Assembly (NCBI GenBank): GCA_025999335.1
Contig: AP024681.1
Coordinates: forward strand, 459,547 to 523,546
Direction: 5' to 3'
From: Candidatus Parcubacteria bacterium
Lineage (GTDB): Bacteria > Patescibacteriota > Minisyncoccia > UBA6257 > HR35
DNA length: 64,000 nucleotides
Shown: piece by piece, positions 6,911 through 64,000 of the stretch
Numbering within the stretch: the first letter of the stretch is position 1
Layout of the letters: every line of letters starts with the position of its first letter
The notes under the pieces: generated by a model
Databases searched by the model: none
The model's input: the letters and a program-made list of their open reading frames with translations, nothing else
Told to the model about the DNA's origin: nothing
Translations under genes and position numbers: made by a program

Positions 6911-6945
6911 TGAGTATAATTTTTTTATTAATAATTTAATTTATT

Positions 6946-8157
6946 ATGAAAAGTAAAAAGTTATCATTTGTCTTTATTATTATAATCTTTTTTGTGATTG
7001 TTTTTTATGCTTATAAAATTGGTTATGAATCAGGCATTACAGTTCTTGCTAAAGAAAGTGGTGTAGATAAATTAACTGTTCAAAAATTGATGAATATAAT
7101 TAAAATTTGGAATATTATCTCTAAAAATTATGTTGAACCACAAAAATTAAACGCTAACAAAGCTGTCTTTGAAGCGTCTCGAGGTGTTGTGAAATCCATA
7201 GGTGATCCTTACGCTGATTTATTTTCAGAACAGCAAAAGAAAATTTTTGAAGAAGATTTGCAAGGTTCATTTGGTGGCGTTGGTTTTGAGATAGGTATTA
7301 GAAAGGAGATTTTGACGGTTATTGCTCCTTTAGAGGGTACGCCCGCAGAAAAAGTTGGTTTGAAACCAGGTGATAAAATTTTAAAAATTAATGGTACCAG
7401 CACTGAAGATATGTCTTTAGATATGGCTGTTAGTCTTATTAGAGGTATGCCAGGGACAACAGTCACATTAACAATCTATAGAAGCGATTGGGTAGAACCT
7501 AAAGATTTTATTATTACTCGCGAAATAATTAATATACCTTTGGTTAAGTCAAAAATCATTGAGCAAAATGTTGGTTATCTTAAAATTAATAGTTTTGCTA
7601 ATGCTGTTGACGAAAAAGTTAAATATGCTTTGCTTGATTTAAAACGTAAAGGAGCTGATCGTTTTATTATTGATTTACGCAATAATCCGGGTGGTTTTTT
7701 AGAGGAAGCTATTAAAGTGAGCAGTCTGTTTTTAAATCCTTCAGAAGTTGTTGTAATTCAAAAAGACAAGAACAACACACAAACAGTACATTTTTCAAAG
7801 GGACCTGGTTCTTTTCGCAAAGAAAAGTTGGTAATTCTTATTAATAGCGGTTCAGCTTCAGCTTCAGAAATTTTTGCTGGCGCTTTAAGAGATAATTTAA
7901 ACATAAAACTTATTGGCGAAAAGAGTTTTGGCAAAGGAAGTGTTCAGCAAACTTTTAATGTTGATAAAAATCTTTTGAAAATAACTATAGCCCATTGGTA
8001 TACGCCTAAAGGTTTTAAGATTGAAGGTGAAGGACTTAAGCCCGATATTGAATTAAAAGAAGAGAAAAAAGAATTAGCTGATGCTGTCGATAAAAATAAA
8101 GCAGAGCAAGAAGATAAAGTTTTAAATTACGCCGTCGCTTTTATTAAAAAAATGTAA
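6946..8157 (+). CDS. C-terminal processing (tail-specific) peptidase, S41 family
   Basis: 403 aa with an N-terminal TM anchor. It has a PDZ segment (GLKPGDKILKINGTSTEDMS), FIIDLRNNPGGFLEEA and INSGSASASEIFAGALRDN, the S41 Ser/Lys dyad context. Confidence 0.8.
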   Translation: MKSKKLSFVFIIIIFFVIVFYAYKIGYESGITVLAKESGVDKLTVQKLMNIIKIWNIISKNYVEPQKLNANKAVFEASRGVVKSIGDPYADLFSEQQKKIFEEDLQGSFGGVGFEIGIRKEILTVIAPLEGTPAEKVGLKPGDKILKINGTSTEDMSLDMAVSLIRGMPGTTVTLTIYRSDWVEPKDFIITREIINIPLVKSKIIEQNVGYLKINSFANAVDEKVKYALLDLKRKGADRFIIDLRNNPGGFLEEAIKVSSLFLNPSEVVVIQKDKNNTQTVHFSKGPGSFRKEKLVILINSGSASASEIFAGALRDNLNIKLIGEKSFGKGSVQQTFNVDKNLLKITIAHWYTPKGFKIEGEGLKPDIELKEEKKELADAVDKNKAEQEDKVLNYAVAFIKKM

Positions 8158-9981: not shown

Positions 9982-11061
9982 ATGATTTATGGAATTTTTA
10001 AAGATAGATTTAATTTCTCTTTATTAATAATAACAATTGTTTTAAGTTTTAGTTTATTTTTTATTTCTTCTCAAAATAATCAAGTTTTAGCTCAACAAAT
10101 TTGTTTGCCAACTGATCAATATTTAATTTGGGAAGGAGATTGGCTTGCTAACAATATACCTATGACTTCTAGCACTCAAAATATTTTAGCCCCTTCGCCA
10201 ATGTTTGTTTTTAATAATAATATAGGTATTGGCACAACCACGCCTCAGTACACTTTACATGTTATAGGTAGTGTTGCCGCTGATACAGTTTGCATTGCCG
10301 GTGATTGTCGTAATGAATGGCCCGTTGCGACCGATAGTGTTAGTGGCTCAGGCGCAGTGTCGCAAGTTGCTTTTTGGGTTGACACAAAAAGAATAAGCGG
10401 AGATTCTAATTTTATTTGGAATACTTCTTCTCATACTTTAGTTGTTAATGGTACAGTAAGTTCAACAAATTTAATTGGTGCTTTAGATGTTGGTTATGTG
10501 CAAGCAGGTGTTTTTGGTAGTAAAGTTGGGATTGGCGATTATACCTTTCCATCTAATTTAACTATTAATAATAATTTATATGTAACTAATACTATTTTAG
10601 CAATGGCAACTATTACGACTAATAAAGCTTTTTGCATAAATAATAGTTGCATAAACGCTTGGCCCGAAACAGACTATGTTAGAGGTACAGGAACAACGGA
10701 TCGTTTAGTTAAATGGATTAATACTTCAACAGTAGGCAATTCAATTATCTATGAAAAAGACAACAAAATAGGTATTAACTATATTAATCCTGAAGCGACA
10801 TTAGACATAAACGGTTCTTTGCAAGTGTTATCATTTATTATGCCTCCAGGCGCGCAAGATGATTATGTTTTAACTTCTGATGATTCTGGTAGGGGAACGT
10901 GGCAACCAAAAGCATCTTTACCTGTGGGTGCTTGCGTTTTAGCTAGTTCTACTGATGCTATACCTCCAAATTCTGGTTTTTATATTGATGCCAGCGTTGA
11001 AGTTATTCAGCAAAACACTGCTACGGGTACATATTATTATATTTTTTGCAAAACTCAATAA
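9982..11061 (+). CDS. Secreted tail-fibre-like protein, a paralog of the N-terminal part of 11070..14318
   Basis: 359 aa. It has a signal peptide and NNNIGIGTTTPQYTLHVIGS; its ~250-aa core (VAFWVDTKRISGDSNFIW…NKIGINYINPEATLDINGS) is collinear with residues ~120–370 of the next protein. Confidence 0.6.
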   Translation: MIYGIFKDRFNFSLLIITIVLSFSLFFISSQNNQVLAQQICLPTDQYLIWEGDWLANNIPMTSSTQNILAPSPMFVFNNNIGIGTTTPQYTLHVIGSVAADTVCIAGDCRNEWPVATDSVSGSGAVSQVAFWVDTKRISGDSNFIWNTSSHTLVVNGTVSSTNLIGALDVGYVQAGVFGSKVGIGDYTFPSNLTINNNLYVTNTILAMATITTNKAFCINNSCINAWPETDYVRGTGTTDRLVKWINTSTVGNSIIYEKDNKIGINYINPEATLDINGSLQVLSFIMPPGAQDDYVLTSDDSGRGTWQPKASLPVGACVLASSTDAIPPNSGFYIDASVEVIQQNTATGTYYYIFCKTQ

Positions 11062-46637: not shown

Positions 46638-47627
46638 ATGCCAATCAAAAAGCAGACAACAAAAACTTTTTTATTCGATCTTCATCTAGATTTAGAAGTT
46701 TATTTGAATAAAAATTTAAGAAAAATTTTAGGAATGAATTTTTACAAATTAGATCGACTTTATGTCGAACGGCATTTTGATTTAGTTCAAGCGAGAAAAG
46801 TTGGCTTAAAATATTTTGTAACCCAAGTTCAAGCAGTAAAATACAATTCTAAAGAAAAAATAATTTTTTCTCTTAATGATTTTGATGAATTTATTGCAAA
46901 TTATGAAAATTTTTTGAAACAAATTAAAAAATATCCCCAGCTTAAAATTATAAAAAGTTTAACTGATTTCAATTCTTTGTCTGAAGATCAAATAGGGGTA
47001 TTTTTAGGCGTTGAGGGTTTGAATTTTATAAATAAAATTGACGAAGTAGAATTATTGATTGACTTAGGCTTTAGAGTCTTTGGTTTAACATGGAATTTTG
47101 ACAATAAAATTGCCGGTGGTCTCAATAGTCATAAGCCATTAACAAAATTTGGCAAAAAAGTTGTTGAACTTTTAGTCGCTAGGGGGTGCATCATCGATTG
47201 TGCTCATTTAAATCATATTTCTGCTTTGGAGGTAATTGATTTAGCGCCTTCTAATTTTATTTTCTCTCATAATAATCTAAATAGCGTTGTCGCTTTTAAG
47301 CAAAACCTAAGCTCAGAAATACTATCTAAAATAAAAACAAAAGAGACATTGATAGGTTTAACTTTTCTTCCTTCATCCTTGACTACTTCTGGTCAACAAC
47401 CTACTTTTAAACATTGGTTTCAGCATTATAAGGAACTAAAAAAAATTAATCCTCAATTTTTAGCTATTGGTACTGACTATTTCGGTTTTGCTTTTAAAGA
47501 TACAGCTTTAGGAGCAAAGAATTATATTGAATTTAATAATAGTTTAATGAAATTTAAAATAAGTAAAGCAAAAATATTTTTTAATACTTTTAACTACTTT
47601 TATAATAAAATTAAGATATGGCAATAG
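46638..47627 (+). CDS. Membrane-dipeptidase family (peptidase M19) protein, cytoplasmic form
   Basis: 329 aa. It has the M19 metal-ligand pattern LFDLHLDL (HxD), GVEGL, GFRVFGLTWNFDNKIAGG, IDCAHLNH, FSHNN and AIGTDYFG. Confidence 0.6.
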   Translation: MPIKKQTTKTFLFDLHLDLEVYLNKNLRKILGMNFYKLDRLYVERHFDLVQARKVGLKYFVTQVQAVKYNSKEKIIFSLNDFDEFIANYENFLKQIKKYPQLKIIKSLTDFNSLSEDQIGVFLGVEGLNFINKIDEVELLIDLGFRVFGLTWNFDNKIAGGLNSHKPLTKFGKKVVELLVARGCIIDCAHLNHISALEVIDLAPSNFIFSHNNLNSVVAFKQNLSSEILSKIKTKETLIGLTFLPSSLTTSGQQPTFKHWFQHYKELKKINPQFLAIGTDYFGFAFKDTALGAKNYIEFNNSLMKFKISKAKIFFNTFNYFYNKIKIWQ

Positions 47628-49402
47628 AAAATTTTGATTCTTTGCGTGCTAACTATTTAAAAGATAATTTGCGTTATAAAAATTATTTAGAGTTTTTAAA
47701 AGAAAGAAGAGAACAGTCAAAGGCAGATTTAGAAAATTTGGCGCAAAATTTTAATATTCCCTTAGAAAAATTACAACAAATACGCACTGATATTAGAAAG
47801 CAGTTATTAAGTACAGAGGATAAAGATTATGCTGCTATTACAACAACATTTCATCTTTTGCCTTGGGAGTTGGAATATTATCTTTTGGCTAAAAAAAGAA
47901 TAAATTTATTAGATTATAAACCTACTCATATTTTTGATATTCCTATTGGTTATATGCAGTCCAAAGATGAAAAACCTCATCAGCTTACAATTGGCGATCG
48001 TTCTTTTAATTACTTAGAATTGATTTTTAATGTTAAAAAAGTTCCTAAAACTTCATATGAATTTTATTTATTGTTAAAAGAAGAATTTAAGAAATTTTTA
48101 GATTTAGAAGAAGTTGATTTTTCTAATTTAAAAGAGATAGTTGACGGATTATTTGCAAATCAACAATTTATTAATTCAAAAATTAAACCTATTTGCAATC
48201 ACTTAAAATCAAAGAATTTACTGAGATTAAATAAACAAGAATTACGAATCAGAGATAATGCTATAGACAAGTTATACGAAGATATTGTTAAAGAGATTAT
48301 ATATTTAATAGTTGACTTTTTAGTTTTTTTTGAAAATGATATTAAGATTAACGAAAAGCGAGAGAAGTTTTTAAAAACAGTTAAATATCTTTTTTCTCAA
48401 GAAGATTTACGTCCAATTTTTAATGCTTTGGGTTTATCATTAAATGTTAATATTGATGATTTTTTAGCTTTTAACGATTATGGGAAAATAATTTTTCTTA
48501 TAGTTATTTTAGGAGGTTTTGATCATATAGGCGCTGAATGGCCCGAAAAAGATAAATTAGGCAAATATAATTTAATAAGAAAATCATTAGGATTAAATTT
48601 AATTACCGAAGTGCCGCCAAATACGTTTGCAGAAAGATTTTTGCTATTTTCTGAATCATCTTTGTCTTCAGAAGCTAATTTTAAGCTTGTAGATTCGTTA
48701 ACCTTGCGTTTGCTTTTTTCTGAGGCGATGCCATCAATTACTTATCTAGCATCTTTTCAGGGTCCTTTTACTGGCACTTTTTCGCCTCTTGCTAAAGAGC
48801 ATCGAGATATTATACGTATTATTGATTTTGTTAGTACTTATAAATTATTTTTACAAGAAATAAAAAATGGAGATATTAAATTTAGCAATAAAATGTTGAT
48901 TGATATTATTAAAAAATATTATGAGACTGTTTTTAAAGGTGGCATTAAGGAAATGTTAAAGAATAAAATTGAAGAGTTTGAAAAAAATTATTTGACAGAT
49001 AATAATTTAGAATATGACTTATTTTTTAGCATAGAACAATTTAATAAATTTTTAAATGAATCAGGCATTAAAGATTACTCTATTAATTTACCTCTTTTAA
49101 TGAGTATCATTTTAGAAAATGAGATTTTTAACGCTTATTTTAAAACTGATATTCAGCGATTAGTTTCTAAAGAAGGCGGAGAACTATTAAATAAATTTTT
49201 AGCTACTGGGAGAAAAATAAAACGTTTAGAAAATTTTTTTGAGCATTTAAATGATAAACAGTTAGTTGGTAATCAAGACGAAAACACAACAATGATGTTT
49301 GGAGGAATCTCTTTGCCGTTTAATTTGCAAACTATTGATAGTGATTTTATAGGTTTAGTTATGCATTTTCGTAGAAAATTAATGTTTGAATCAAGGTTGT
49401 AA
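47618..49402 (+). CDS. Hypothetical cytoplasmic protein with no recognisable motif
   Basis: 594 aa, predominantly helical and Lys/Glu-rich. It is translationally coupled to both neighbours (10-bp and 1-bp overlaps). Confidence 0.5.
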   Translation: MAIENFDSLRANYLKDNLRYKNYLEFLKERREQSKADLENLAQNFNIPLEKLQQIRTDIRKQLLSTEDKDYAAITTTFHLLPWELEYYLLAKKRINLLDYKPTHIFDIPIGYMQSKDEKPHQLTIGDRSFNYLELIFNVKKVPKTSYEFYLLLKEEFKKFLDLEEVDFSNLKEIVDGLFANQQFINSKIKPICNHLKSKNLLRLNKQELRIRDNAIDKLYEDIVKEIIYLIVDFLVFFENDIKINEKREKFLKTVKYLFSQEDLRPIFNALGLSLNVNIDDFLAFNDYGKIIFLIVILGGFDHIGAEWPEKDKLGKYNLIRKSLGLNLITEVPPNTFAERFLLFSESSLSSEANFKLVDSLTLRLLFSEAMPSITYLASFQGPFTGTFSPLAKEHRDIIRIIDFVSTYKLFLQEIKNGDIKFSNKMLIDIIKKYYETVFKGGIKEMLKNKIEEFEKNYLTDNNLEYDLFFSIEQFNKFLNESGIKDYSINLPLLMSIILENEIFNAYFKTDIQRLVSKEGGELLNKFLATGRKIKRLENFFEHLNDKQLVGNQDENTTMMFGGISLPFNLQTIDSDFIGLVMHFRRKLMFESRL

Positions 49403-52762: not shown

Positions 52763-53113
52763 TTGAAATATGCAATTAAAGGTTTAAATTATGCTTTTAA
52801 ACACCATCGTCATTTTAAAATAGAACTTTTCGTTGTCATTTTAGTAATTATCTTAAGTTTTATTTTTGATCTTAATACCCTCGAATTTCTTTCAATTCTT
52901 TTTGCCATAGTTTTAGTTTTGATTTCTGAAATTTTTAATAATTTAATTAAAGAAACTTTGAATTTTGTCTATCAAGAATATCATCAAAAAGTAAAATTCA
53001 TTAAAGATTTATCAGCAAGAGCTGTTTTAATTGCGGTTATTTACAGCTTAATTGTCGGAATAATAATCTTTTTACCAAAGATATTTAGCTTGTTTATATA
53101 TCCCCTTAGTTGA
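52763..53113 (+). CDS. dgkA: Diacylglycerol / undecaprenol kinase (DgkA family)
   Basis: 116 aa with a TTG start. It has three TM helices and AIKGLNYAFKHHRHFKIE…SEIFNNLIKE (the DgkA E-x-xN-x-IE motif). Confidence 0.65.
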   Translation: MKYAIKGLNYAFKHHRHFKIELFVVILVIILSFIFDLNTLEFLSILFAIVLVLISEIFNNLIKETLNFVYQEYHQKVKFIKDLSARAVLIAVIYSLIVGIIIFLPKIFSLFIYPLS

Positions 53114-53147: not shown

Positions 53148-53948
53148 ATGAATTCAATGATAAAAAGATTAATTAAAAAATCAATTTTTGTTTTAAGAAA
53201 TTATGGTTTAAAGGTTTTTTTAATTAAAGCTTTAAAATTTCCTCTCAATAGGATAAATCTTTTAAGACAAAAGTTAGGAGAAAAAAGAGCTTATAAAAAT
53301 TCCCAAAGAGTTATTTACAAATTAAAACAATTCAATTCTAATAATCCTGAAGAAGTTTTTAATTTTGCTTGGAAATTCTATTTTGGTTTAATTAGACCAA
53401 TGCAAATTAAAGAAGAATTCCTTGAACTTTTAAAAATCTTTCAACAGCTAAACCCCCAATATATTATGGAAATCGGAACAGCTAATGGCGGAACTCTATT
53501 TTGTTTTTGTAAATTAGCTAAAGATGATGCTACGATAATATCTATTGATCTTCCAGAAGGACCATTTGGCGGAGGTTATCCCAAATGGAGAATTCCAATT
53601 TATCAAGCTTTTGCTAAAGAAAATCAAAAATTATATCTCATAAGAGAAGATTCCCATAAAGAAGAAACCTTAAATAAAGTAAAAGAAGTTCTTAATGGCA
53701 ATCAATTAGATTTTCTTTTCATTGATGGTGATCACAGTTATGAAGGAGTTAAAAAGGATTTTGAAATGTATTCCCCTTTAGTTAGAAAAGGTGGGATAAT
53801 TGCATTTCATGATATTAATATTCATTTAAATGCACCAGAAATAGGCGTTAATAAATTTTGGAATGAGATAAAAAATCGCTTTGTCCATAAAGAAATGATT
53901 AAAGGCCATATTTCAGGTTGGGCAGGGATTGGTGTTTTATTTTTATAA
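53148..53948 (+). CDS. Class I SAM-dependent methyltransferase (CmcI/TylF-like sugar O-methyltransferase)
   Basis: 266 aa. It has MEIGTANGGTLFCF (a glycine-rich SAM loop) and FLFIDGDHSYEGVKKDFE…GGIIAFHDI. Confidence 0.6.
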   Translation: MNSMIKRLIKKSIFVLRNYGLKVFLIKALKFPLNRINLLRQKLGEKRAYKNSQRVIYKLKQFNSNNPEEVFNFAWKFYFGLIRPMQIKEEFLELLKIFQQLNPQYIMEIGTANGGTLFCFCKLAKDDATIISIDLPEGPFGGGYPKWRIPIYQAFAKENQKLYLIREDSHKEETLNKVKEVLNGNQLDFLFIDGDHSYEGVKKDFEMYSPLVRKGGIIAFHDINIHLNAPEIGVNKFWNEIKNRFVHKEMIKGHISGWAGIGVLFL

Positions 53949-53962
53949 TTAGTTTATAACTA

Positions 53963-54907
53963 ATGAATAAGCAACAATTAATAGAAAAATTAGATTATTC
54001 AGCACGAAAATATTTGTTTCCTTTAAAGACAAGGTTTTTAAAATTTCCTTTTATTACCTTAAGAGATGCTTTTATAACTATTTTGTTTAACAAAGTTTTA
54101 AGACAAAAAATTTATTTTTTAGTAAAAGCAAAAACCTTTTTTGAAGAAGATTTTTATTGCATTTTCCCCGAATCAACAGATGTTTATTTTTATGGAGCTT
54201 ATGTTTATTGTAATCCTGAATACAGATTGACCAGGTTTATAATAAAACATAACTTTAAAGATAATTTAATATTTTTTGATCTCGGAGCTCATTATGGATA
54301 CTATTCAGTTTTAATGAGCAAACTATATCCTCAAAGCAAAGTGTTTGCTTTTGAACCAGATAGAGGTGTTTTAGAAATTTTGAAAAAAAATAAAAGAGAA
54401 AATATCGAAATAATTCCTAAGGCAGTTGGTTCTTTTAATGGCAAAACAAAATTTTATTCTTTTGACTTATTAAGTTCAGGAGTCTCAACTTTAAATATAG
54501 AAAACTTAAAAAAAATTCCCCTTACTCAACAAAAGCCGAATGAATACGAAGTTGAAGTTATTACCTTAGATAGTTTTTGTGAAGAAAATAAAATAATTCC
54601 TGATTTTATCAAAATTGATGTTGAAGGAGCTGAAGAAGATGTTTTAAGGGGATCAACTAAGTTATTAAAAAATAAATCACCAATTATTGCTCTTGAAATT
54701 TGGTTTCGACCCACACCTCCCGAAAATTATCTTAATGCTGTTAATATTTTAAAGAATAATGAATTTAAAATGTTCGCCATAACTGAAAACGGTGATTTAG
54801 AAGAAGTAAATTATGACAATATTTTTGAATATTTTAAAAAACTTGAAGAAAGATATAAAAAAATAAATCAAGGAATTGTTTTTGATAATTTAATTTTTCT
54901 TAAATGA
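53963..54907 (+). CDS. FkbM-family methyltransferase
   Basis: 314 aa. IFFDLGAHYGYYSVLMSKLYPQSKVFAFEPDRGVLEIL is the FkbM domain signature. Confidence 0.65.
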   Translation: MNKQQLIEKLDYSARKYLFPLKTRFLKFPFITLRDAFITILFNKVLRQKIYFLVKAKTFFEEDFYCIFPESTDVYFYGAYVYCNPEYRLTRFIIKHNFKDNLIFFDLGAHYGYYSVLMSKLYPQSKVFAFEPDRGVLEILKKNKRENIEIIPKAVGSFNGKTKFYSFDLLSSGVSTLNIENLKKIPLTQQKPNEYEVEVITLDSFCEENKIIPDFIKIDVEGAEEDVLRGSTKLLKNKSPIIALEIWFRPTPPENYLNAVNILKNNEFKMFAITENGDLEEVNYDNIFEYFKKLEERYKKINQGIVFDNLIFLK

Positions 54908-56052
54908 AAAAAATTCTCTTTATTGGAGATAATTGGTTTGGAGATTTAGGTGGGAGAAAGAAAATAGTTTTGGCTTTAATGAATTTTTTAATCAATGACT
55001 ATAATATTTATTTACTCACCATAGATACTAAAATTAAAAAGGAATCAATTAAAGATTTTAAAAAAGATTTAGAAGAAGACATCAACATTTATCCTTATTT
55101 TTTTCCAAGGAATGTATTTTTTTATTTCAAACTTTTAATCCTCTTCGGAATAAAAATTTTAAAGATAAGACCCAACCTTATAATTTCTTTTGGCGGGGGA
55201 CCTCATTCTAATGCGAATTTTTTCTATATAAGTAAAATCTTTGCACCAAAAAGTAAAATAATTTTTATTGAACAAGGAAATACAAGGCATTTATTCAATA
55301 AACAAAATCTGATAGTGAAACTTTTAACTAAAATAGCATTTAAAAGTGTAGATAAAATAATTACGGCAGGCGAGGGAGTAGCTGAGGATGTAAAAAATTT
55401 ATTTAATTTAAGAAACAATCAAGTAACTTTTGTTTATAATTTTGTTGATTTTGAAAAAATTAAAAATTTAAGCTTGGAAGCAATTGAAGAAAAAATTTTT
55501 GCAGATAAATTCAAACCAATAATATTAGCAGTTAATAGGTTAGATTTATATCAAAAAGATATTTTAACTTTATTAAACGCCTTTTCTGTTGTTGCTCAAA
55601 ATGTAGATGCGTATTTAGTAATCATAGGTGAAGGACCTGATAGAGTCAAAGTAGAGAACAAAATTAAAGAATTAAATTTAGAGTCGAAAGTTTTTTTGTT
55701 AGGTCATAAAAATAATCCCTATAAATATATGAAAAATTCAGATGTTTTTGTTTTAAGTAGTTTCCATGAGGGAATGCCTATTGTTTTAATTGAAGCTATG
55801 GTTTGCAATCTACCGGTTGTTGCTACTGATTGTGATTTTGGACCAAGAGAAATAATTAAAGATGGACATAATGGATTTTTAGTTAAGGTCGGCGATTATG
55901 AAACTATGGCAAAAAAAATAATTGAATTAATCAAACACAAGGAGTTAATAAGAAAATTTGTAGAAAATTCGTTTTCGATTTTACCTTACTTTTCTTCTAA
56001 TTATGCTTTAGAAAAATATAAAGAAATTATAAATTCAGTAATGACACAATGA
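54904..56052 (+). CDS. Glycosyltransferase family 4
   Basis: 382 aa with the C-terminal motif EGMPIVLIEAMVCNLPVVATDCDFGPREII. Confidence 0.75.
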   Translation: MKKILFIGDNWFGDLGGRKKIVLALMNFLINDYNIYLLTIDTKIKKESIKDFKKDLEEDINIYPYFFPRNVFFYFKLLILFGIKILKIRPNLIISFGGGPHSNANFFYISKIFAPKSKIIFIEQGNTRHLFNKQNLIVKLLTKIAFKSVDKIITAGEGVAEDVKNLFNLRNNQVTFVYNFVDFEKIKNLSLEAIEEKIFADKFKPIILAVNRLDLYQKDILTLLNAFSVVAQNVDAYLVIIGEGPDRVKVENKIKELNLESKVFLLGHKNNPYKYMKNSDVFVLSSFHEGMPIVLIEAMVCNLPVVATDCDFGPREIIKDGHNGFLVKVGDYETMAKKIIELIKHKELIRKFVENSFSILPYFSSNYALEKYKEIINSVMTQ

Positions 56053-57020
56053 AAATAGTTTTAATTTTTAACAAATCGTTTCCTTGTACAACAGGGCAAT
56101 ATATTTTGAAGATTTTAGAAAAAGAAAATGAAGTTTTTGTTTTATCACCAAAAGATAATTTTCAAAAAATTCACGAAATCCAACCAGATTTTATTTTAGT
56201 AATCGATGATAGTAGTCATTATATTCTAGATGTTAATTATCATCCTAAGGTAATATGGATTATTGATTCACATACTTCTTTTATCTGTGATAAAGTGATG
56301 GTTAAGAGTTTTGATATTGTTTTTGTGGCTCAGAAAGAATACGTTGAGAAATTTAAAAAATATAATCAACATGTTTATTGGCTTTCTTTAGCTTGTGATC
56401 CAGATTGGCATAGTAAACAGAATTTAGAAAAAATTTATGATGTTGCTTTTATTGGACAAATGGGAAGAGGCTGGCGGAGGAAATTATTAATAAATTTAAA
56501 AAAAGATTTCCCTAACTCTTTTATTTCTTCAGCTGACTGTAAAGATATTGGCAAAATCTATTCTCAAGCTAAAATAGTTGTTAATTATAATGTTAATAAT
56601 GATATTAATATGCGGGTTTTTGAGGCTTTGTGTTCTGGAAATTTACTTTTAACAAATAAAATAAAAGATAATGGTTTTAATGAATTATTTGAAGATAGAA
56701 AACATTTAGTGGTTTATAATGGGACTTATAGAGATTTAAAAGAAAAAATTAAATATTATTTAGAAAATGAAGAAGAAAGAGAAAAAATGGCTGAAAATGG
56801 AAGGAATTTAGCTTTATCTTTACATACTTATCAACAGAGAGCAGATTTTATGGTTAAAAAAATTTTAGAACTCAAAAACGAAAAATTTTATGATTATTCA
56901 AATTTAAGCTATTCTCTAATGAAATTAAATTTATTCATTAGATTTTTATTTTGGAAAGTGATTTATTTAAGGGTTTGGCAAGTTTTAGCCGAATTAAATG
57001 CTCTTTTAAGATTTAAGTAA
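56049..57020 (+). CDS. CgeB/DUF3880-like glycosyltransferase
   Basis: 323 aa with VAFIGQMGRGWRRKLL and MRVFEALCSGNLLLTN. Confidence 0.55.
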   Translation: MKIVLIFNKSFPCTTGQYILKILEKENEVFVLSPKDNFQKIHEIQPDFILVIDDSSHYILDVNYHPKVIWIIDSHTSFICDKVMVKSFDIVFVAQKEYVEKFKKYNQHVYWLSLACDPDWHSKQNLEKIYDVAFIGQMGRGWRRKLLINLKKDFPNSFISSADCKDIGKIYSQAKIVVNYNVNNDINMRVFEALCSGNLLLTNKIKDNGFNELFEDRKHLVVYNGTYRDLKEKIKYYLENEEEREKMAENGRNLALSLHTYQQRADFMVKKILELKNEKFYDYSNLSYSLMKLNLFIRFLFWKVIYLRVWQVLAELNALLRFK

Positions 57021-57022
57021 TT

Positions 57023-58030
57023 ATGCCTAAAGTTTCTATTATTACCCCAACTTATAATGTAGAAAAATTTATTGAAAGAGCTATTAAAAGTGTATTATGG
57101 CAGACATTTCAAGATTGGGAAATGATTATTGTTGATGATGGCTCAAAAGATAAAACTGTAGAAATAGTAAAAAAATATGTTGAAAAAGATCCAAGAATAA
57201 AACTTATTGAACGAAAAGAAAATACAGGAGGGCCAGCAATTCCAAGAACAATAGCTTGCAAGGAAGCTAAAGGAGAATACATAGCTTTTTTAGATCAGGA
57301 TGATATTTTTTATCCAGAAAATTTAGAAAAGAGGGTAAGATATTTAGACGAACATCCTGAAATAGACATTTTATTTACGATGGCTTGGACTTTTGATGAA
57401 GATACTAAAAAAATAGTTAATTATGAACACGGTGGTCCGGTTAATTTAATTGTTAGAAGAAAAGTTATTGAAGAAGCTGAATATTTTAAACCTGAACAAA
57501 ACGGAGTTGATGAAATAGGAATGCTTTATAGATATTTTTTAAAAGCCGAAAACAATTTTTCTAAGCAAGTTATTCTAACTAAAGAACCCTTGTCTTTATA
57601 TTCGAGACATCCCGGTCAAGGTTCTTATGTTGAAAATAAAGACCCGATTAAATTTGTCAAAAGAATCGAGTCTTTAATAGACGAATTTTCGGAAGAAAAA
57701 ATAAGTAATATCAAGATAGATGAAAAATTTAGGAACTACATAAAGAAGATTAGATATATTTGGTATTCAAGGTTGGGTAATTTTTATTGTTTAGCGGGTG
57801 ATTTTAAAAAAGGAAAAGAGGCATTTAAAAAATCTTTGAGATTACATTTTAATCTTTTTTCTTTGTTTTTTTTGATTCTTTCTTTTTTAGGATATAAAAA
57901 TTATAGGAAAATTGAATTTTTATTGAGAATGATTCAAAGAAAAATTTTATGGAAATTAAAAGTTTTTGTTTATAAGAGAAAATTTAAAGAAAGTTATGAT
58001 AAAGCCTTAAAAATACTTCAAGAATCATGA
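57023..58030 (+). CDS. Glycosyltransferase family 2
   Basis: 335 aa. It has VSIITPTYNVEKFIERAIKSVLWQTFQDWEMIIVDDGSKDKT and a DxD (FLDQDD). Confidence 0.8.
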   Translation: MPKVSIITPTYNVEKFIERAIKSVLWQTFQDWEMIIVDDGSKDKTVEIVKKYVEKDPRIKLIERKENTGGPAIPRTIACKEAKGEYIAFLDQDDIFYPENLEKRVRYLDEHPEIDILFTMAWTFDEDTKKIVNYEHGGPVNLIVRRKVIEEAEYFKPEQNGVDEIGMLYRYFLKAENNFSKQVILTKEPLSLYSRHPGQGSYVENKDPIKFVKRIESLIDEFSEEKISNIKIDEKFRNYIKKIRYIWYSRLGNFYCLAGDFKKGKEAFKKSLRLHFNLFSLFFLILSFLGYKNYRKIEFLLRMIQRKILWKLKVFVYKRKFKESYDKALKILQES

Positions 58031-59124
58031 AAAGCAAAATTCTTTTAATTTTAAGCAGTGAACAATTTTCCGGAGGAGAAAAAGTAGCTTTAGAAATCGC
58101 TAAAAACTTAAAATCAAATTTTGATTTTATCTTTTTTTTACCTGGAAAACCACAAAAAGAATTTGAAGAAGAACTAAAAAATTTTGAATTTTATTATTCC
58201 CCCCAAAAATCATTTTTAGAGATAATTAAAAATTTAAAGAAAACAATCACTTTTTTAAAGCCGTCAATTATCAATACCCATGGTACAAGAGCTAGCGTTT
58301 TTTTGAAACTTGTTCTTTTTCTCACTTTAAAGAAAAAGTTTAAATTTATTTATACTCTCCACGGTGCTCATTTTGTAAGAAGAAAATTTTCTGTTAATTT
58401 TATTTTTTTGATTTGGGAATTAATTACGAATTATTTGTTTGTAGATTATTTAATTTGCGTCGGTAAAGATGATTATGACCTCATTAAGAAACTAAAATTA
58501 ATTAATAAAAATAAATTGTTTTTAATAGAGAATGGAATAAATTTTGAAGAGTATCAAAACATAGAAAAAGGATATTTAAGAAAAAATTTTAATTTAAAGA
58601 ACGAAATAATTTTAACTACTATTTGTAGACTTCACTATCCAAAGGATCTTAAAACTCTTATTAATGCAGTTAATTTAATCAAAGACGAAAATATAGTTTT
58701 ATTTATAGTTGGCGATGGTCCTGACAGAAATGAATTGGAAGATTTAGTTAGAAATTTAAATTTGGAAAATAAAATAAAATTTTTAGGATTTAGAAAAGAA
58801 ATAAAAGAAATCTTACAAGACACTGATATTTTTATTCTCTCAACCCGTTGGGAGGGTTTACCTTTAGTTATTTTAGAAGCCTGGGCGACAAAAAAACCGG
58901 TTATTGCTTCAGATGTCCATGGTATTAGAGGCTTAATAAAAAATGAAGAATCAGGAATTTTGTTTAAATTTGGTGATCTCGAAGATTTGAAGAAAAAAAT
59001 TTTGCTATTGATCAAGAATGAGAATTTGAAATTCAAAATAGCGAACAATGGTTATGAATTAGTTAAAAAGAAATATAATATTTTTCAAATGGCCCAGAGT
59101 TATAAAGAAATTTATAATAGATGA
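58027..59124 (+). CDS. Glycosyltransferase family 4
   Basis: 365 aa with EGLPLVILEAWATKKPVIASDVHGIRGLI. Confidence 0.75.
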   Translation: MKSKILLILSSEQFSGGEKVALEIAKNLKSNFDFIFFLPGKPQKEFEEELKNFEFYYSPQKSFLEIIKNLKKTITFLKPSIINTHGTRASVFLKLVLFLTLKKKFKFIYTLHGAHFVRRKFSVNFIFLIWELITNYLFVDYLICVGKDDYDLIKKLKLINKNKLFLIENGINFEEYQNIEKGYLRKNFNLKNEIILTTICRLHYPKDLKTLINAVNLIKDENIVLFIVGDGPDRNELEDLVRNLNLENKIKFLGFRKEIKEILQDTDIFILSTRWEGLPLVILEAWATKKPVIASDVHGIRGLIKNEESGILFKFGDLEDLKKKILLLIKNENLKFKIANNGYELVKKKYNIFQMAQSYKEIYNR

Positions 59125-59972
59125 AAAACTTAAAAAAATTACTTTTAAATTACTTTCATTTTATAAGATCTCAGCTCCCTCTTACTAAAATCAAAACTAC
59201 ACCTTTTACTAAAATAAAAATAATTTTGGGAGCAATTTTCAATATTTTCCTTAAACCTCTTCAATTAATTAACCAAAATTTTTATTTTCGATTAAGAAAA
59301 TTCGTTCTAAGTGAAATATATAAAAATATTCAGATAGAAATTCAAAATAAAAAATTTAAGATTAGAGATGATATTGATTTAATGACTCTGTTAGCTGATG
59401 AGGGAATAGATGAATTTTTTAAAATAAGAGACAAGATTTTTTTAGATATAGGAGCTCACATTGGCAAATACTCTATTTTATATTCAGATTTTTACGAAAA
59501 AATTTATGCGTTTGAACCTGAACCCGATAATTTTAATTTATTAAAAGAAAACATTAGATTAAATAACTTAAAAGGAAAAATATTTCCCTTTCAATTAGCG
59601 CTTTCAGACAAAACCAGTAAAATAGAATTTTATTTATCTCCCTATTCAGTTGCCAATTCTCTTATTAAAAATGAAGGATATAAAAAAATTTTAGTTGATA
59701 CAATTACTTTAGATGAATTTTTGAAACAGGAAAAAATTAATTTTAACAACATCTCTTGTATCAAAATTGATGTCGAGGGAGCCGAAGATATGGTTATAAA
59801 AGGCATGGAAAAATCATTCTCATTTTTAAGATGTAAAATAATTATTGAAATTTTGGAAAACAATTCAGAAAATTTTAAATTTATTTCAGAATTTATTAAA
59901 AAGTACAATTTTAAAATAAAAAAAATTAAAGGTGATTATTATTTAGCTTATTATGAAAATTCTTCAAGTTAA
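59121..59972 (+). CDS. FkbM-family methyltransferase (second copy)
   Basis: 283 aa with FLDIGAHIGKYSILYSDFYEKIYAFEPEPDNFNLLKENI. Confidence 0.65.
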   Translation: MKNLKKLLLNYFHFIRSQLPLTKIKTTPFTKIKIILGAIFNIFLKPLQLINQNFYFRLRKFVLSEIYKNIQIEIQNKKFKIRDDIDLMTLLADEGIDEFFKIRDKIFLDIGAHIGKYSILYSDFYEKIYAFEPEPDNFNLLKENIRLNNLKGKIFPFQLALSDKTSKIEFYLSPYSVANSLIKNEGYKKILVDTITLDEFLKQEKINFNNISCIKIDVEGAEDMVIKGMEKSFSFLRCKIIIEILENNSENFKFISEFIKKYNFKIKKIKGDYYLAYYENSSS

Positions 59973-61059
59973 TAAACTTTATTATCCTTGGATAGGTGGA
60001 GTAGAAACAATTGTTAAACAGATTGCTGAAGGGTTGAATAAAAAAAATAGTTTAGAGATTGATGTTTTGGTTTGTAATGATAAAAATGAAACTGTTATTG
60101 AGGAAATTAATGGAGTGAAAATAATGCGGGTCCAAAGTTTTGGTATATTTTGGAGTATGCCAGTTTCTTTTTATTTCTTAAATTTTTACAGAAAAATTGC
60201 TAAAAATTATGATTTAATATTTTTACACTATCCTTTCCCTTTAGGTTTCGTTGCTTACACTTTGTTTTCAAGAAACAAAAATTTAGTTGTTTGGTATCAT
60301 TCAGATATTGTTAGACAAAAGCTTTTAGAAATTTTCTTTCGTCCATTTCATCTTTATGCTCTTAAAAAATCAAAAAAAATTTTTGTTTCCAATCCTAATT
60401 TAATCAAAAGTTCAGATTATTTAAAAAAATTTAAAGAAAAATGTATAGTTATTCCTTTTGGCATTGATTTAAATTATTTTAGAGAAAATGAAGAAATTAA
60501 AAAAGAAGCCGAAGAAATAAGAAAAAAATTTGGCACCCCTCTTATTCTCTCAATCGGAAGGCTTTCTTATTATAAAGGATTTACCTATTTAATTAGGGCT
60601 AGTAAAGAAATTGAGGGGAAAATTTTAATAATCGGGGAAGGGAAATTGAAAAACAAACTTTTAAGATTGATTAATGATCTCAACTTAGAGAATAAGGTTT
60701 TTATTATCCCACCTGTTAATGACTTAAGACCCTATTATTTAGCTTGTGATATTTTTGTTTTACCATCGATTCATAAATCAGAAGCTTTTGGTATTGTGAT
60801 TTTGGAATCAATGGCTTTTGGGAGGCCAGTAATTTCAACAGAATTAGGAACAGGTACAAGTTGGTTAAATATTAATAATGAAACAGGTTTTGTGGTTCAA
60901 CCTAAAAATGAAAAAGAATTAGTTGAGAAAATTAATTTACTTTTGCATAACAAAGAACTTTGTCAAAGATTTAATCAAAACGTAAAAGAAAGGGTAAGGG
61001 GTTTTTCTTTGGATAATTTTTGGGAAAACTTAAAGAAAGAATTAATATCTATTTTTTAA
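59953..61059 (+). CDS. Glycosyltransferase family 4
   Basis: 368 aa with SEAFGIVILESMAFGRPVISTELGTGTSWL. Confidence 0.75.
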   Translation: MKILQVNKLYYPWIGGVETIVKQIAEGLNKKNSLEIDVLVCNDKNETVIEEINGVKIMRVQSFGIFWSMPVSFYFLNFYRKIAKNYDLIFLHYPFPLGFVAYTLFSRNKNLVVWYHSDIVRQKLLEIFFRPFHLYALKKSKKIFVSNPNLIKSSDYLKKFKEKCIVIPFGIDLNYFRENEEIKKEAEEIRKKFGTPLILSIGRLSYYKGFTYLIRASKEIEGKILIIGEGKLKNKLLRLINDLNLENKVFIIPPVNDLRPYYLACDIFVLPSIHKSEAFGIVILESMAFGRPVISTELGTGTSWLNINNETGFVVQPKNEKELVEKINLLLHNKELCQRFNQNVKERVRGFSLDNFWENLKKELISIF

Positions 61060-61456
61060 ACACTAAAAATCTTGAAAAAAGAAAATTGAAAATATAAACC
61101 AAAGCGCTACTTAAAATTATTGAAAGTAGATAGAAAATTTTAAACCACTCTGTAAATACAAAGACTAAAATTGAGTACAACAAAAGCCCTAGAGTTTGGA
61201 AAGAATAAAAACCAACTAATCTTTTAAAAAATAACTCTCTTTTTGTTTTAAAGGTAATAAAAGCTTGAAAGAAAAAATTAAAAATTAAACTTAAAAGATA
61301 ACTACAAATTGCTGAAAGAAGGTAAAACAATCTTAATTTTTCAGTAAAGATGTAAGCTAAGGATAGATTTATTAAAAGAGCCACCAATCCGCCAATTCCA
61401 TACAAAACAAATTTTTTAAACTCTTCTTTTAATTTCATTTTTGTAAAAGACACCAT
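61049..61456 (-). CDS. GtrA-family membrane protein (polyprenyl-phosphate-sugar translocation)
   Basis: 135 aa with four TM helices. FVLYGIGGLVALLINLSLAYIF is the GtrA-like N-terminal pattern. Confidence 0.6.
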   Translation of the reverse strand: MVSFTKMKLKEEFKKFVLYGIGGLVALLINLSLAYIFTEKLRLFYLLSAICSYLLSLIFNFFFQAFITFKTKRELFFKRLVGFYSFQTLGLLLYSILVFVFTEWFKIFYLLSIILSSALVYIFNFLFSRFLVFKK

Positions 61457-63576
61457 ACATCAGCACAACCTATAGGTTTAAAACCTTTGTTTATAAAATT
61501 ATTCGCCTCACTTAAATAAAATTCTCCAAGTTGAGGATGGAAAACTATGGCTAATTTTAAACTTTTTAATTTATTTTCATCTTCTAAACATTTTGGAGAA
61601 AGTTGAATATTTTTCCTTAAATACCACATTGCGATTCCACCATAATATAACCCCATTTGATTTTGTCCTAAGCATATTTCATTATGTTTTAATTGATTTT
61701 TTAACTCTTTTAACACCATAATATCTTTCTCGCCTAAAATCGAATATTTATTTATAAAGAAATCTAATTTTTGGTAAGAGAAATAAAAAGCAATAATTAA
61801 TAATAAAGTCGAAACAAAAATTCCTGTATATTTCAATTTTTCATAAAGATAAATAAATAATAAACTATTAAAAACAGCAACGATTGGCAAAAAGAAAACA
61901 ACGCCAAAAGGATGGGTTGACCATTGAAAAAAAACTAAAGTGTTAATAATTGGCATTAAAAGTAAGGGCAAGAAAATTTTATATTTTTTAAAGTAATTGA
62001 AAAGATAAACAAAGAAACCCAAAACACCTAACCAAAGAAAAACTTTACTAAAATTAAGTTCCATTCTTCCATAAATATCTCTAATCCAAGATTGGAAAGA
62101 AGACCTTGCCGCTCTTCCTTTAAAAGCTTCTATTAGATCAATGAAACCATCAAAGCTTCTTAAAATATAGATGTGCAAAAGATTAAGAGCAAAAACAAAA
62201 ATTGAAACAATTGGCAAAACAATTAATAAAATTTTTCTTTCTTTGTTAAATTCTCTTCTTTTGTCAAATAAAAGATAAAACCAAATTGATGCTGGCATAA
62301 AGAAATAAAACCAAGCCATCAAACCTCCTAAAAATATTGAGGCGATCAGAAAATATAAATAAATATTCTTTTTAGAATAATAGTAAAAAATAAAAAGCGC
62401 AAAAGTAATTAAAGCTGTTGGTAGTCCAAAAACAGATAATTCAAAAGTTGTCCCATAATGTATTGTTCCGGGAAGAAAAATAAAAATTAAAGTAATGATG
62501 GTAGGGAGGAGTAAATTTTTAAAAATTTTTTGTAAAGCAAAATAGAAAAATATTATACCGATAATGAACATTAAAAAGATGCCAGCTCTGGTTGTAAGCT
62601 CCGAAATACCAAAAATTTTATAGAGAAAATAAGTTGGCAAAAGGTAAAACATTGGATGGTGAGTATAAAAAGTATCTTCTTTGCTGTTTTTCAATTTTTC
62701 AAAATCAAAATTATCTTTAGTTAAATAGCCATTAACATATTTACCAAATTTCATTTCTAATGGACCAATATTTAACCAATTTAAAACAGCTAAACCGCTT
62801 TCTCCATTTTGATCGGATGTAACATTAATAAAGAGTTTATTAAGATTATTTAAAGCTAATAGAAAATATATTGCCAACAATAAAAGCAAAATAAAACTAT
62901 TAATTTTCCATCCCCAGCCAATCTTATTTTTCAAATCTATTAGAAACTTTATAGTAATTAATCCATGTTTTAAAGGAAAAAGTTTTGATTCGCCTTCGCG
63001 AGGAGAGTAATTGATGTGCGTTTCTTTAAATTTAAATCCAGCTAAAATAGTTTTTATCTTTAATTCTTGAGATAAAGGCATATCACCGGATGCAAGGTTG
63101 ATTTTTTTTAGAATATCTTTTTTGAAAATCATCATACCTGACCAGGAGTCTTTTAAGCTTATATTAAAAAGAAGTTTGACTATAAAATTAAAAAATTTAT
63201 TGCCCCAAATTCTTGAAAAGCTAAGTGCATTTTTATTTTGCAAAGGAAATCTTGAACAATTTAAAAAATCTAAATTGTTTTTCTCAAAATAATCTACTAA
63301 TTCTAAAATTTTTTCTCCAGGATATTGACCATCAGCATCTAAAGTAACAATAACATCTCCTTTTGCTTCTCGAAAACCTTTTTGCAGTGCATAGCCATAA
63401 CCTTGTTTTGTTTCTTTGATAACTCGAGCACCTAATTTTTTAGCAATATTCGCTGTTTTATCAGTTGAATTGTTATCTACAACAATAATTTCGAACACCT
63501 CTTTAGGTATTTTTTCAATTGTTTTGGCTATGCCTTTTTCTTCGTTGTAGGCAGGAATTATTACTGATATTTTCAT
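61435..63576 (-). CDS. Fusion protein: N-terminal GT2 polyprenyl-phosphate glycosyltransferase (GtrB/DPM1-like) plus a C-terminal ~480-aa polytopic membrane domain (GT-C-like)
   Basis: 713 aa. The N-terminus is MKISVIIPAYNEEKGIAKTIEKIP…VVDNNSTDKT…TLDADGQYP (GT2 with DAD). The C-terminal half has ≥11 hydrophobic helices and a first-loop acidic motif (FDFEKLKNSKED). Confidence 0.7.
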   Translation of the reverse strand: MKISVIIPAYNEEKGIAKTIEKIPKEVFEIIVVDNNSTDKTANIAKKLGARVIKETKQGYGYALQKGFREAKGDVIVTLDADGQYPGEKILELVDYFEKNNLDFLNCSRFPLQNKNALSFSRIWGNKFFNFIVKLLFNISLKDSWSGMMIFKKDILKKINLASGDMPLSQELKIKTILAGFKFKETHINYSPREGESKLFPLKHGLITIKFLIDLKNKIGWGWKINSFILLLLLAIYFLLALNNLNKLFINVTSDQNGESGLAVLNWLNIGPLEMKFGKYVNGYLTKDNFDFEKLKNSKEDTFYTHHPMFYLLPTYFLYKIFGISELTTRAGIFLMFIIGIIFFYFALQKIFKNLLLPTIITLIFIFLPGTIHYGTTFELSVFGLPTALITFALFIFYYYSKKNIYLYFLIASIFLGGLMAWFYFFMPASIWFYLLFDKRREFNKERKILLIVLPIVSIFVFALNLLHIYILRSFDGFIDLIEAFKGRAARSSFQSWIRDIYGRMELNFSKVFLWLGVLGFFVYLFNYFKKYKIFLPLLLMPIINTLVFFQWSTHPFGVVFFLPIVAVFNSLLFIYLYEKLKYTGIFVSTLLLIIAFYFSYQKLDFFINKYSILGEKDIMVLKELKNQLKHNEICLGQNQMGLYYGGIAMWYLRKNIQLSPKCLEDENKLKSLKLAIVFHPQLGEFYLSEANNFINKGFKPIGCADVWCLLQK

Positions 63577-63640
63577 TGATTAATTATAAAATAAAAATTA
63601 ATTTTTAATTTTCATTATTTTATTTTAGCAAAGTTAATTA

Positions 63641-64000
63641 TTAAAAAAGTTTATGTTTTCTAAGCCAATGTTTTATAGCTTTTTCCACTAATTTAGAGCT
63701 TGAATTAATTTTGCCACCCCCAACGCCAAAAACCATTTTACAACCTATTTTTTTGCAAACCTTAACTTCAGGAATATTTTTTCTTGTGCGATCGCCACCA
63801 TTAACGAAAATGTCAGGCGTTAATTTTAAAAGTTCTTGAGACACGCTCATATCTTTAGGATGGCGAGGGTGTTTAGTCAAAATCACTTTATCAACCCATT
63901 TAATTGATCCAATTAAAGCTTTTCTGTCTTTTTGGGGTATTAAAACATATCCCTTTTTAGCCTTTAGCCAATTATCATTATTTAAAATAACAACTAATTC
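63641..64000 (-). CDS. Cytidylyltransferase-like nucleotidyltransferase (RfaE domain II / TagD-like), C-terminal part; gene continues beyond window end
   Basis: The track shows an 81-aa ORF, but the frame stays open upstream to the window edge (…ELVVILNNDNWLKAKKGYVLIPQKDRKALIGSIKWVDKVILTKHPRHPKDMSVSQELL…). The motif FVNGGDRT and the layout resemble sugar-phosphate nucleotidyltransferases. Confidence 0.55.
   Translation of the reverse strand, partial: ELVVILNNDNWLKAKKGYVLIPQKDRKALIGSIKWVDKVILTKHPRHPKDMSVSQELLKLTPDIFVNGGDRTRKNIPEVKVCKKIGCKMVFGVGGGKINSSSKLVEKAIKHWLRKHKLF

Follow-up and report, generated by a model that had tools for sequence, protein, structure and literature searches.

The locus and its open reading frames

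The 64,000-nucleotide stretch analysed here, referred to as the window, derives from contig AP024681.1 of a Candidatus Parcubacteria bacterium, and near its right end it carries two overlapping genes on the minus strand. The upstream one is an open reading frame (ORF) of 713 amino acids (aa; 61435–63576, stop codon TGA at 61435–61437) in which an N-terminal family 2 glycosyltransferase (GT2) domain is followed by a polytopic membrane domain of the GT-C glycosyltransferase type. The downstream one, gtrA (61049–61456), encodes a 135-aa small membrane protein of the GtrA family (PF04138, E 6.3e-16) with about four hydrophobic segments. The G+C content of the region is about 25%, and the 713-aa product matches at 100% a protein (P0001) of 'Candidatus Parcubacteria bacterium KatS3mg097', which is encoded on a 680-kb contig. 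An earlier reading of the locus, made from the letters and the ORF list without database searches (the sequence-only reading), had described a donor synthase fused to a membrane-embedded transferase beside GtrA. Both ORFs lie where it placed them, with a 22-nt overlap in the ORF list, and domain identities, predicted folds and conservation support its description. The 713-aa GT2–GT-C protein is a real, conserved and uncharacterised fused form of a known three-part system of surface glycosylation.

The N-terminal GT2 domain

The cytoplasmic catalytic domain (GT-A fold) spans residues 1–200 (62977–63576, minus strand), as identified with PF00535, NCBIfam, PDB and Foldseek. The Pfam match to Glycos_transf_2 (PF00535) covers residues 4–159 (E 5.5e-35), and the PAYNEE and DADGQYP motifs quoted in the sequence-only reading are both found. 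In NCBIfam, the domain is matched best by the models for dolichyl-phosphate hexose transferase (E 6e-34), AglJ and PpgS. Since the scores of these GT2 matches fall far below the equivalog cut-offs, they allow the class of the enzyme to be assigned, but neither a particular orthologue nor a sugar specificity; an equivalog-level NCBIfam assignment was obtained for neither of the two domains.

The closest relative of the domain by sequence in the PDB is the dolichyl-phosphate-mannose (Dol-P-Man) synthase of Pyrococcus furiosus (PfDPMS; 5mlz, E 6e-17 over residues 1–233), followed by ArnC and GtrB. Similarly, DPMS, ArnC and GtrB are the first Foldseek matches of the full-length AlphaFold model (E 4e-10 to 1e-7). 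The DxD metal and nucleotide-sugar motif DADGQ (D80-A-D82-G-Q84; 63325–63339, minus strand) aligns to DADLQ of PfDPMS, and the REGESK motif (R193–K198; 62983–63000, minus strand), which is common to Dol-P-Man synthase and aligns to RARGESKL of PfDPMS, is likely to bind polyprenyl phosphate. In the alignment of the two proteins, LDADGQYP, KDSWSG and REGESKL of the fused protein pair with MDADLQHP, KDPVSG and RGESKL of PfDPMS, respectively, and D80, D82, Q84, D143, S146, G147, R193, S197 and K198 are invariant in all 33 full-length homologues compared. A search of the 713-aa protein for the QxxRW synthase motif was negative. The matches to DPMS, ArnC and GtrB by both sequence and fold, the shared motifs and the absence of QxxRW place the domain in the non-processive group of GT2 enzymes, and as far as sequence and model can tell it therefore belongs to the DPM1/GtrB/ArnC type, which would transfer one sugar onto polyprenyl phosphate.

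The nearest stand-alone GT2 relatives (45–50% identity) are about 220 aa long and lack a transmembrane (TM) helix. In the AlphaFold model of the fused protein, a helix formed by residues 201–219 (PLKHGLITIKFLIDLKNKI; 62920–62976, minus strand) joins the GT2 domain to the first TM helix, and, by analogy with DPMS, it may lie at the membrane interface.

Topology and fold of the C-terminal domain

Hydropathy and AlphaFold secondary structure concur on 11 TM helices after residue 221, in line with the at least 11 that the sequence-only reading had counted. The first of them, TM1 (residues 222–245; 62842–62913, minus strand), runs from inside to outside and leads into a long first extracytoplasmic loop (EL1) of 80 residues (246–325; 62602–62841, minus strand), which contains D255, N257, N266 and a YTHHP motif (304–308). 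TM2–TM11 (residues 326–606; 61759–62601, minus strand) complete the GT-C core and present E326, R330, E379, W422, R488 and H555 at the outer face. The chain ends in a 107-aa alpha/beta domain (residues 607–713; 61438–61758, minus strand) that is predicted to be extracytoplasmic and contains cysteines at positions 635, 663, 704 and 709, three of which (C635, C704 and C709) do not vary among the 33 full-length homologues; this domain is not present in the distant relatives of the family. Given a cytoplasmic GT2 domain, the predicted topology is N-in/C-out, and it follows the positive-inside pattern, as lysine and arginine make up 8 of the 13 residues in the short inner loops compared with 6 of 62 in the short outer loops.

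AlphaFold modelled the full-length chain with a predicted local distance difference test score (pLDDT) of 93.7 and a predicted template modelling score (pTM) of 0.79, and residues 215–713 alone with a pLDDT of 95.5 and a pTM of 0.93. When the latter model was compared with the PDB by Foldseek, the top 39 matches were all proteins of GT-C fold. The best was ArnT (5f15, E 3e-8, query TM-score (TMq) 0.64), followed by PglB, AglB, STT3, ALG12 (target TM-score (TMt) 0.66), ALG9, DPY19, AftA, Pmt4, Emb and ALG6; PIGU, a GT-C-like subunit of the glycosylphosphatidylinositol transamidase, is also among the 39. Unrelated transporters in the list have E above 0.4 and a probability of about 0.1 or less. 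In a profile search of the PDB with the C-terminal domain, ArnT was again found, as the sole and weak match (E 0.18), and in this alignment YTHHP (304–308) pairs with YFEKPP and E379 with the aspartate of the NTLDM segment of ArnT; the ArnT residues concerned are E84/K85 and D158. At the family level, the fused protein itself stays below the gathering score of PMT_2 (PF13231), an orthologue (P0007) clears it with 27.7 bits, and so do all 18 distant profile relatives that were scanned (30–69 bits). The modelled C-terminal part thus has a GT-C fold of the ArnT/PMT_2-like kind.

Conserved residues and the putative active site

Conservation was scored over 26 close and 86 distant PMT_2 relatives of the GT-C domain. 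D255 is kept in all 26 close relatives, and about half of the distant ones have an aspartate in the same or the adjacent column, in a part where the alignment is shaky. N266, Y304, H306, H307 and P308 are kept in most of the 86 distant relatives, as are E326 and R330 (83 of 86), W422 (85 of 86), R488 and H555 (78 of 86). Every conserved polar residue maps to outer loops or to the outer ends of helices, that is, to the extracytoplasmic face, which argues for an active transferase and not a membrane anchor, one of the two outcomes that would have counted against the sequence-only reading. Judged from this pattern, D255 in EL1 could serve as the catalytic base of an outward-facing GT-C site, while H306/H307, R330, R488 and H555 are candidates for phosphate and donor binding. 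The fused architecture is topologically coherent and very probably functional in both halves.

The overlap with gtrA

The junction of the two minus-strand genes reads ...CAA AAA TGA, where an in-frame ATG at 61438 offers an alternative start for a 129-aa GtrA. In that case the stop and start codons would overlap as ATGA (61435..61438, minus strand, within 'aaatgaaa'). The N-terminus of the 129-aa form is nearer in length to the homologue found in a Patescibacteria metagenome-assembled genome (MAG; L009), which suggests that the real overlap may be 4 nt and not 22. Whichever start is used, the sequence points to translational coupling of the fusion gene and gtrA.

This arrangement recurs at four further loci (L001–L004), where a GtrA orthologue lies directly downstream of a fusion gene; these are loci of 61–70% identity. 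In L009, a 136-aa GtrA is encoded 0.6 kb downstream of the GT-C gene. A Paceibacterota MAG (L006) has a different arrangement, in which a 355-aa GT2–GtrA protein of type-III DPMS architecture (6754–7818, minus strand) is encoded 0.6 kb from the GT2–GT-C fusion, indicating that two donor synthases are encoded at that locus. Within the 64-kb window, family hidden Markov models identified no second GT-C or GtrA.

Fused, split and stand-alone relatives

Approximately 45 full-length fused homologues (about 706–726 aa, 40–81% identity) were found in NCBI, JGI, ENA and Logan assemblies, and full-length fused copies are present in 7 species-representative genomes. A truly split counterpart occurs in L009, where a stop codon closes a 225-aa GT2 and, after a gap of 8 nt, a 566-aa GT-C follows with its own N-terminal tail, rich in lysine and arginine, ahead of TM1; the fused form is devoid of such a tail. 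The occurrence of fused homologues in independent assemblies, together with the truly split L009, points to a genuine fusion of genes rather than an error of assembly, thereby removing the second concern attached to the sequence-only reading. In the AlphaFold model, the junction between the GT2 and GT-C domains has a block pLDDT of at least 83.

Two further cases that were called split were rejected as such. In P0046 (L001, 3267–5392), a frameshift within TM1 at a T-rich run breaks a fused gene, and in P0088 (L082, 2–2110) the GT2 breaks off after residue ~169, residues ~170–198 are gone and the downstream 'gene' starts at residue 199 of the fusion. The breaks in L001 and L082 are either sequencing errors or pseudogenes.

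A profile of the GT-C domain, run against 1.84 billion representative proteins, retrieved 594 relatives at E <= 1e-3, 49 of them at E <= 1e-30. A GT2 domain was sought in 20 distant PMT_2 relatives, long ones included, and found in none. In three of these 20 proteins (P0173, P0197 and P0191), C-terminal PA14 or Laminin_G_3 (lectin-like) domains replace the 107-aa Cys domain. Closer to the fused protein, the Patescibacteria GT-C subfamily forms about 15 fused clusters at 50% identity as compared to about 19 stand-alone clusters with their own N-termini, and all named members, fused or stand-alone, belong to Patescibacteria, Parcubacteria or Minisyncoccia. The simplest history is that adjacent GT2 and GT-C genes became fused, which supplied a GT2 without TM helices with a membrane anchor. 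As the N-terminus of the GT-C is cytoplasmic, attachment of a GT2 domain would be topologically cost-free.

The sequence-only reading had called this architecture unusual, and that holds in one respect. The literature yielded no description of a GT2–GT-C fusion, which is weak evidence of absence given the incomplete coverage of subscription journals; on the other hand, the fusion recurs in a single GT-C subfamily of Patescibacteria. Set beside the studied systems it is unusual, but it is not rare among its Patescibacteria relatives.

The gene neighbourhood

A cluster of glycan assembly genes (53148–61059, plus strand) is convergent to the fusion gene and gtrA, and it comprises four GT4, one GT2 and three methyltransferases. 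It begins with a CmcI-like and an FkbM methyltransferase (53148–54907), which are followed by a GT4 (54904–56052), a GT4-like gene (56049–57020), the GT2 (57023–58030), another GT4 (58027–59124), the second FkbM methyltransferase (59121–59972) and, as the last gene, a GT4 (59953–61059), all on the plus strand. The 3' ends of this last gene and of gtrA overlap by 11 nt (61049–61059). No terminator-like site lies between these two convergent genes, and a scan of 60900–64000 for promoters and terminators gave counts no higher than those in shuffled sequence, so that its calls were set aside.

Directly upstream of the glycan cluster lies a DAGK_prokar gene of the diacylglycerol/undecaprenol kinase type (52763–53113, plus strand), which is possibly linked to carrier-lipid supply. 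Directly upstream of the fusion gene, a cytidylyltransferase-like ORF in the same orientation (63641–64000, minus strand; an 81-aa fragment in the ORF list) runs off the end of the window, and an AT-rich gap of 64 nt separates it from the ATG of the fusion. Its label comes from reading the sequence, with Pfam giving weak unrelated matches only, and its product may supply an activated precursor. Farther away, a 594-aa ORF (47618–49402, plus strand) has no Pfam match at E <= 1e-5.

Comparison with known systems and other fusions

The locus consists of a GT2 polyprenyl-phosphate-sugar (polyprenyl-P-sugar) synthase, a GtrA-family protein and a polytopic GT-C, beside a glycan assembly cluster. These are the same three parts as in GtrB/GtrA/GtrX of Shigella phages, CsbB/GtcA/YfhO and GtlA/GtcA/GtlB of Bacillus and Listeria, and ArnC/ArnEF/ArnT, and such three-component systems have been described (PMC7389260, PMC11898649). 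Unlike in the Gtr-type systems, GT2 and GT-C form a single 713-aa chain here, and as the three parts are not three separate polypeptides, the locus is a variant of the three-component system and not a canonical member. Its GT-C also sets it apart from the Gtr-type systems, as a member of a PMT_2-like subfamily that is specific to Patescibacteria and has YTHHP as its motif, in a host from the Candidate Phyla Radiation (CPR). GtrB and ArnC each have two TM helices, whereas the GT2 of the fused protein has none of its own.

Among the individual enzymes, PfDPMS (5mlz) shares the DAD-Q, D-x-x-SG and R-x-GESK motifs with the fused protein, and in both the GT2 is covalently joined to a membrane domain, which in PfDPMS is a GtrA-like domain of four TM helices (PMC12992685). 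Unlike in type-III DPMS, the GT2 of the fused protein sits on an 11-TM GT-C and GtrA is a separate gene, PF04138 matching the downstream ORF only; an identity as type-III DPMS was rejected, as the TM domain is GT-C and not GtrA-like. ArnT of Cupriavidus metallidurans (GT83; 5ezm/5f15) resembles the C-terminal part in its N-in topology, its long EL1 and its outer C-terminal domain. The two share only about 11% identity, however, E84/K85 of ArnT are replaced by H306/H307, and ArnT has 13 TM helices compared with the 11 predicted in the GT-C domain of the fusion. With YTHHP instead of YFEKPP at this identity, the fold alone is common to them, and the candidate identity as an ArnT orthologue was rejected. 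Lipid A synthesis is not known from CPR bacteria, and the fused protein must therefore have another acceptor than ArnT. Ppm1 of Mycobacterium tuberculosis is a polyprenol-P-mannose synthase fused to an Lnt-like (apolipoprotein N-acyltransferase-like) membrane domain. The parallel is that a GT2 making a polyprenyl-P-sugar shares its chain with a polytopic membrane domain from a linked pathway; the difference is that the partner here is a GT-C glycosyltransferase, not an Lnt-like protein.

Other uncharacterised fusions of components of this pathway were also encountered, mostly in Patescibacteria, which depart from the 713-aa protein in the order of their domains or in the class of GT-C. An 843-aa chain (P0053; L083 4001–6532, also in L084) combines PMT_2 (82–240), GtrA (485–601) and GT2 (622–777). 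It is present on four contigs from two independent assemblies (JGI and NCBI among them), in a cluster of GT4, epimerase and UDP-sugar dehydrogenase genes, and on L083 a 472-aa product (10301–10532 and beyond) matches both GT4 (PF00534) and GtrA (PF04138). In addition, P0072 is a GT2–YfhO fusion of 980 aa, and P0052 and P0054 combine a GT2 with 9–10 TM helices of another kind.

A proposed mechanism and its alternatives

With a probability of roughly 0.7, the locus encodes a natural fusion of two of the three Gtr-type components, with GtrA translationally coupled downstream, that would work as follows. The analysis itself establishes the domain identities, folds, motifs, topology pattern, conservation and synteny; the chemistry, the sugar, the acceptor, the part played by GtrA and the advantage of being fused are inferred from them. 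At the cytoplasmic face, the GT2 domain, tethered through helix 201–219 into TM1, would move a hexose from a nucleotide sugar to polyprenyl phosphate. The resulting polyprenyl-P-sugar would then reach the outer leaflet, for which GtrA is the presumed flippase or an accessory subunit. GtrA has been widely proposed, although not proven, to be the flippase of such lipids (PMC7389260), and for PfDPMS it has been suggested that the GtrA-like TM domain flips the product of its own enzyme (PMC12992685). On the outside, the GT-C domain would take the lipid-linked sugar as donor at its outward-facing site and glycosylate an acceptor at the cell surface, for which the glycan product of the adjacent cluster of GT4, GT2 and methyltransferase genes is the most likely candidate and a surface protein a possible one. 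The fusion itself would set the ratio of synthase to transferase at 1:1, anchor a GT2 that lacks TM helices and limit the amount of trapped polyprenyl-P-sugar. In Bacillus subtilis, CsbB without its GT-C partner YfhO leaves undecaprenyl-phosphate-linked N-acetylglucosamine (UndP-GlcNAc) trapped and depletes the carrier pool (PMC11898649). The benefit of the fusion is probably anchoring together with fixed 1:1 stoichiometry.

Several observations weigh against this proposal. Members of the family are named in their sources only as 'hypothetical protein', 'glycosyltransferase' or 'dolichyl-phosphate-mannose-protein mannosyltransferase'. The PMT_2 match of the 713-aa protein (residues 307–460, E 0.002) reaches 18.8 bits compared with a gathering score of 26.1, and the inter-domain geometry of the model is less certain than that of the single domains, as the drop in pTM from the C-terminal part to the full-length chain indicates. 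Furthermore, no stand-alone GtrA was found within 4 kb of the fusion in L005–L008 (40–43% identity), where the fusion is surrounded by housekeeping genes (ClpP, integrase, inositol monophosphatase, tRNA synthetase and asparagine synthase), which means that the linkage to GtrA is not universal. These same fusions without a nearby GtrA, together with the GT-C–GtrA–GT2 chain P0053, would be compatible with a share of the GT-C domain in translocation. A stronger form of the proposal, which we regard as unlikely, holds that the fusion and GtrA form one synthase–flippase–transferase machine, in which the lipid-linked sugar would be passed across the membrane without mixing into the bulk lipid pool, and with local reuse of the carrier.

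The alternative that retains most weight, although we still consider it doubtful, concerns the acceptor. The fusion could be a Ppm1- and Pmt-like module for protein O-glycosylation that serves S-layer proteins, pilins or lipoproteins of the CPR surface. The Pfam family match (PMT_2/PMT), the proximity of the GT2 to Dol-P-Man synthase, the location of the L005–L008 fusions outside a glycan cluster and the 'dolichyl-phosphate-mannose-protein mannosyltransferase' name given to one stand-alone relative all speak for it. They are set against the rank of ArnT as the best structural match, with Pmt1/2/4 far worse (E 4e-3 to 0.2), the lack of a MIR domain and the position of the operon next to the four-GT4/one-GT2/three-methyltransferase cluster, none of which is decisive. 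Nor is the hint at carbohydrate from the PA14 or Laminin_G_3 domains of distant relatives, although these domains and the adjacent cluster together make us lean towards a carbohydrate acceptor. It is improbable, by comparison, that the C-terminal domain is a degenerate GT-C that acts as an anchor or scaffold for the GT2, with the polyprenyl-P-sugar being used by another enzyme. The stand-alone GT2 relatives without a TM helix would indeed need an anchor, the PMT_2 score lies under the threshold and E84/K85 of ArnT have given way to H306/H307. However, an anchor would not be expected to preserve D255 in every one of the 26 close relatives, or N266, H307, E326, R330, W422, R488 and H555, all at the outer face, in most of the 86 distant ones; the same domain also stands alone in about 19 clusters, and the conserved Cys-containing outer domain has been retained.

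Two other explanations fare worse. A GT2 with a polytopic membrane domain attached is the signature architecture of synthase-dependent secretion, and weak PgaC/IcaA-type matches appear far down the NCBIfam list, so a processive enzyme of the cellulose, chitin or hyaluronan synthase kind, with the TM domain as its polysaccharide export channel, has to be considered. It is very unlikely in the face of the missing QxxRW motif, the nearest sequence and fold matches to the non-processive DPMS, ArnC and GtrB, a TM domain that matches GT-C enzymes and not synthase channels, and the gtrA gene that adjoins the fusion. Least credible of all is that two separate genes were joined into one frame by an assembly error, a frameshift or read-through. 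The split calls of P0046 and P0088 and the true split in L009 might point that way, but the first two are broken fused genes (in L001 and L082), and the tail of the L009 GT-C is missing from the fused form. Some 45 fused homologues from independent assemblies, the copies in 7 species-representative genomes and the confidently modelled junction similarly contradict it.

Significance for the Patescibacteria surface

The preferred reading, a synthase–transferase fusion with a coupled GtrA, bears on whether the three components of such systems act as a complex and on how a lipid-linked sugar crosses the membrane. Every three-component system studied so far uses separate proteins for the donor synthase, the GtrA-type component and the GT-C transferase. 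A conserved natural fusion offers a Rosetta-stone argument that synthase and transferase act side by side, and this argument is strengthened by the split, double-fused and triple-fused relatives. A plausible selective reason is that 1:1 stoichiometry would avoid the trapping of a scarce carrier lipid, which is harmful in B. subtilis (PMC11898649). As a compact, confidently modelled protein from a hot spring, the fusion is a target for structure determination and for reconstituting the 'inside-to-outside' step of glycosylation. If the GT-C domain does take part in translocation, the single-chain proteins of thermophiles would provide a direct handle on the flipping of monosaccharide-P-polyprenols.

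To conclude, the locus is an uncharacterised variant of a known system, and it matters above all as natural evidence that synthase and transferase are coupled. It is also a pointer to an unstudied pathway of surface glycosylation in the CPR/Patescibacteria, whose envelopes are poorly known.

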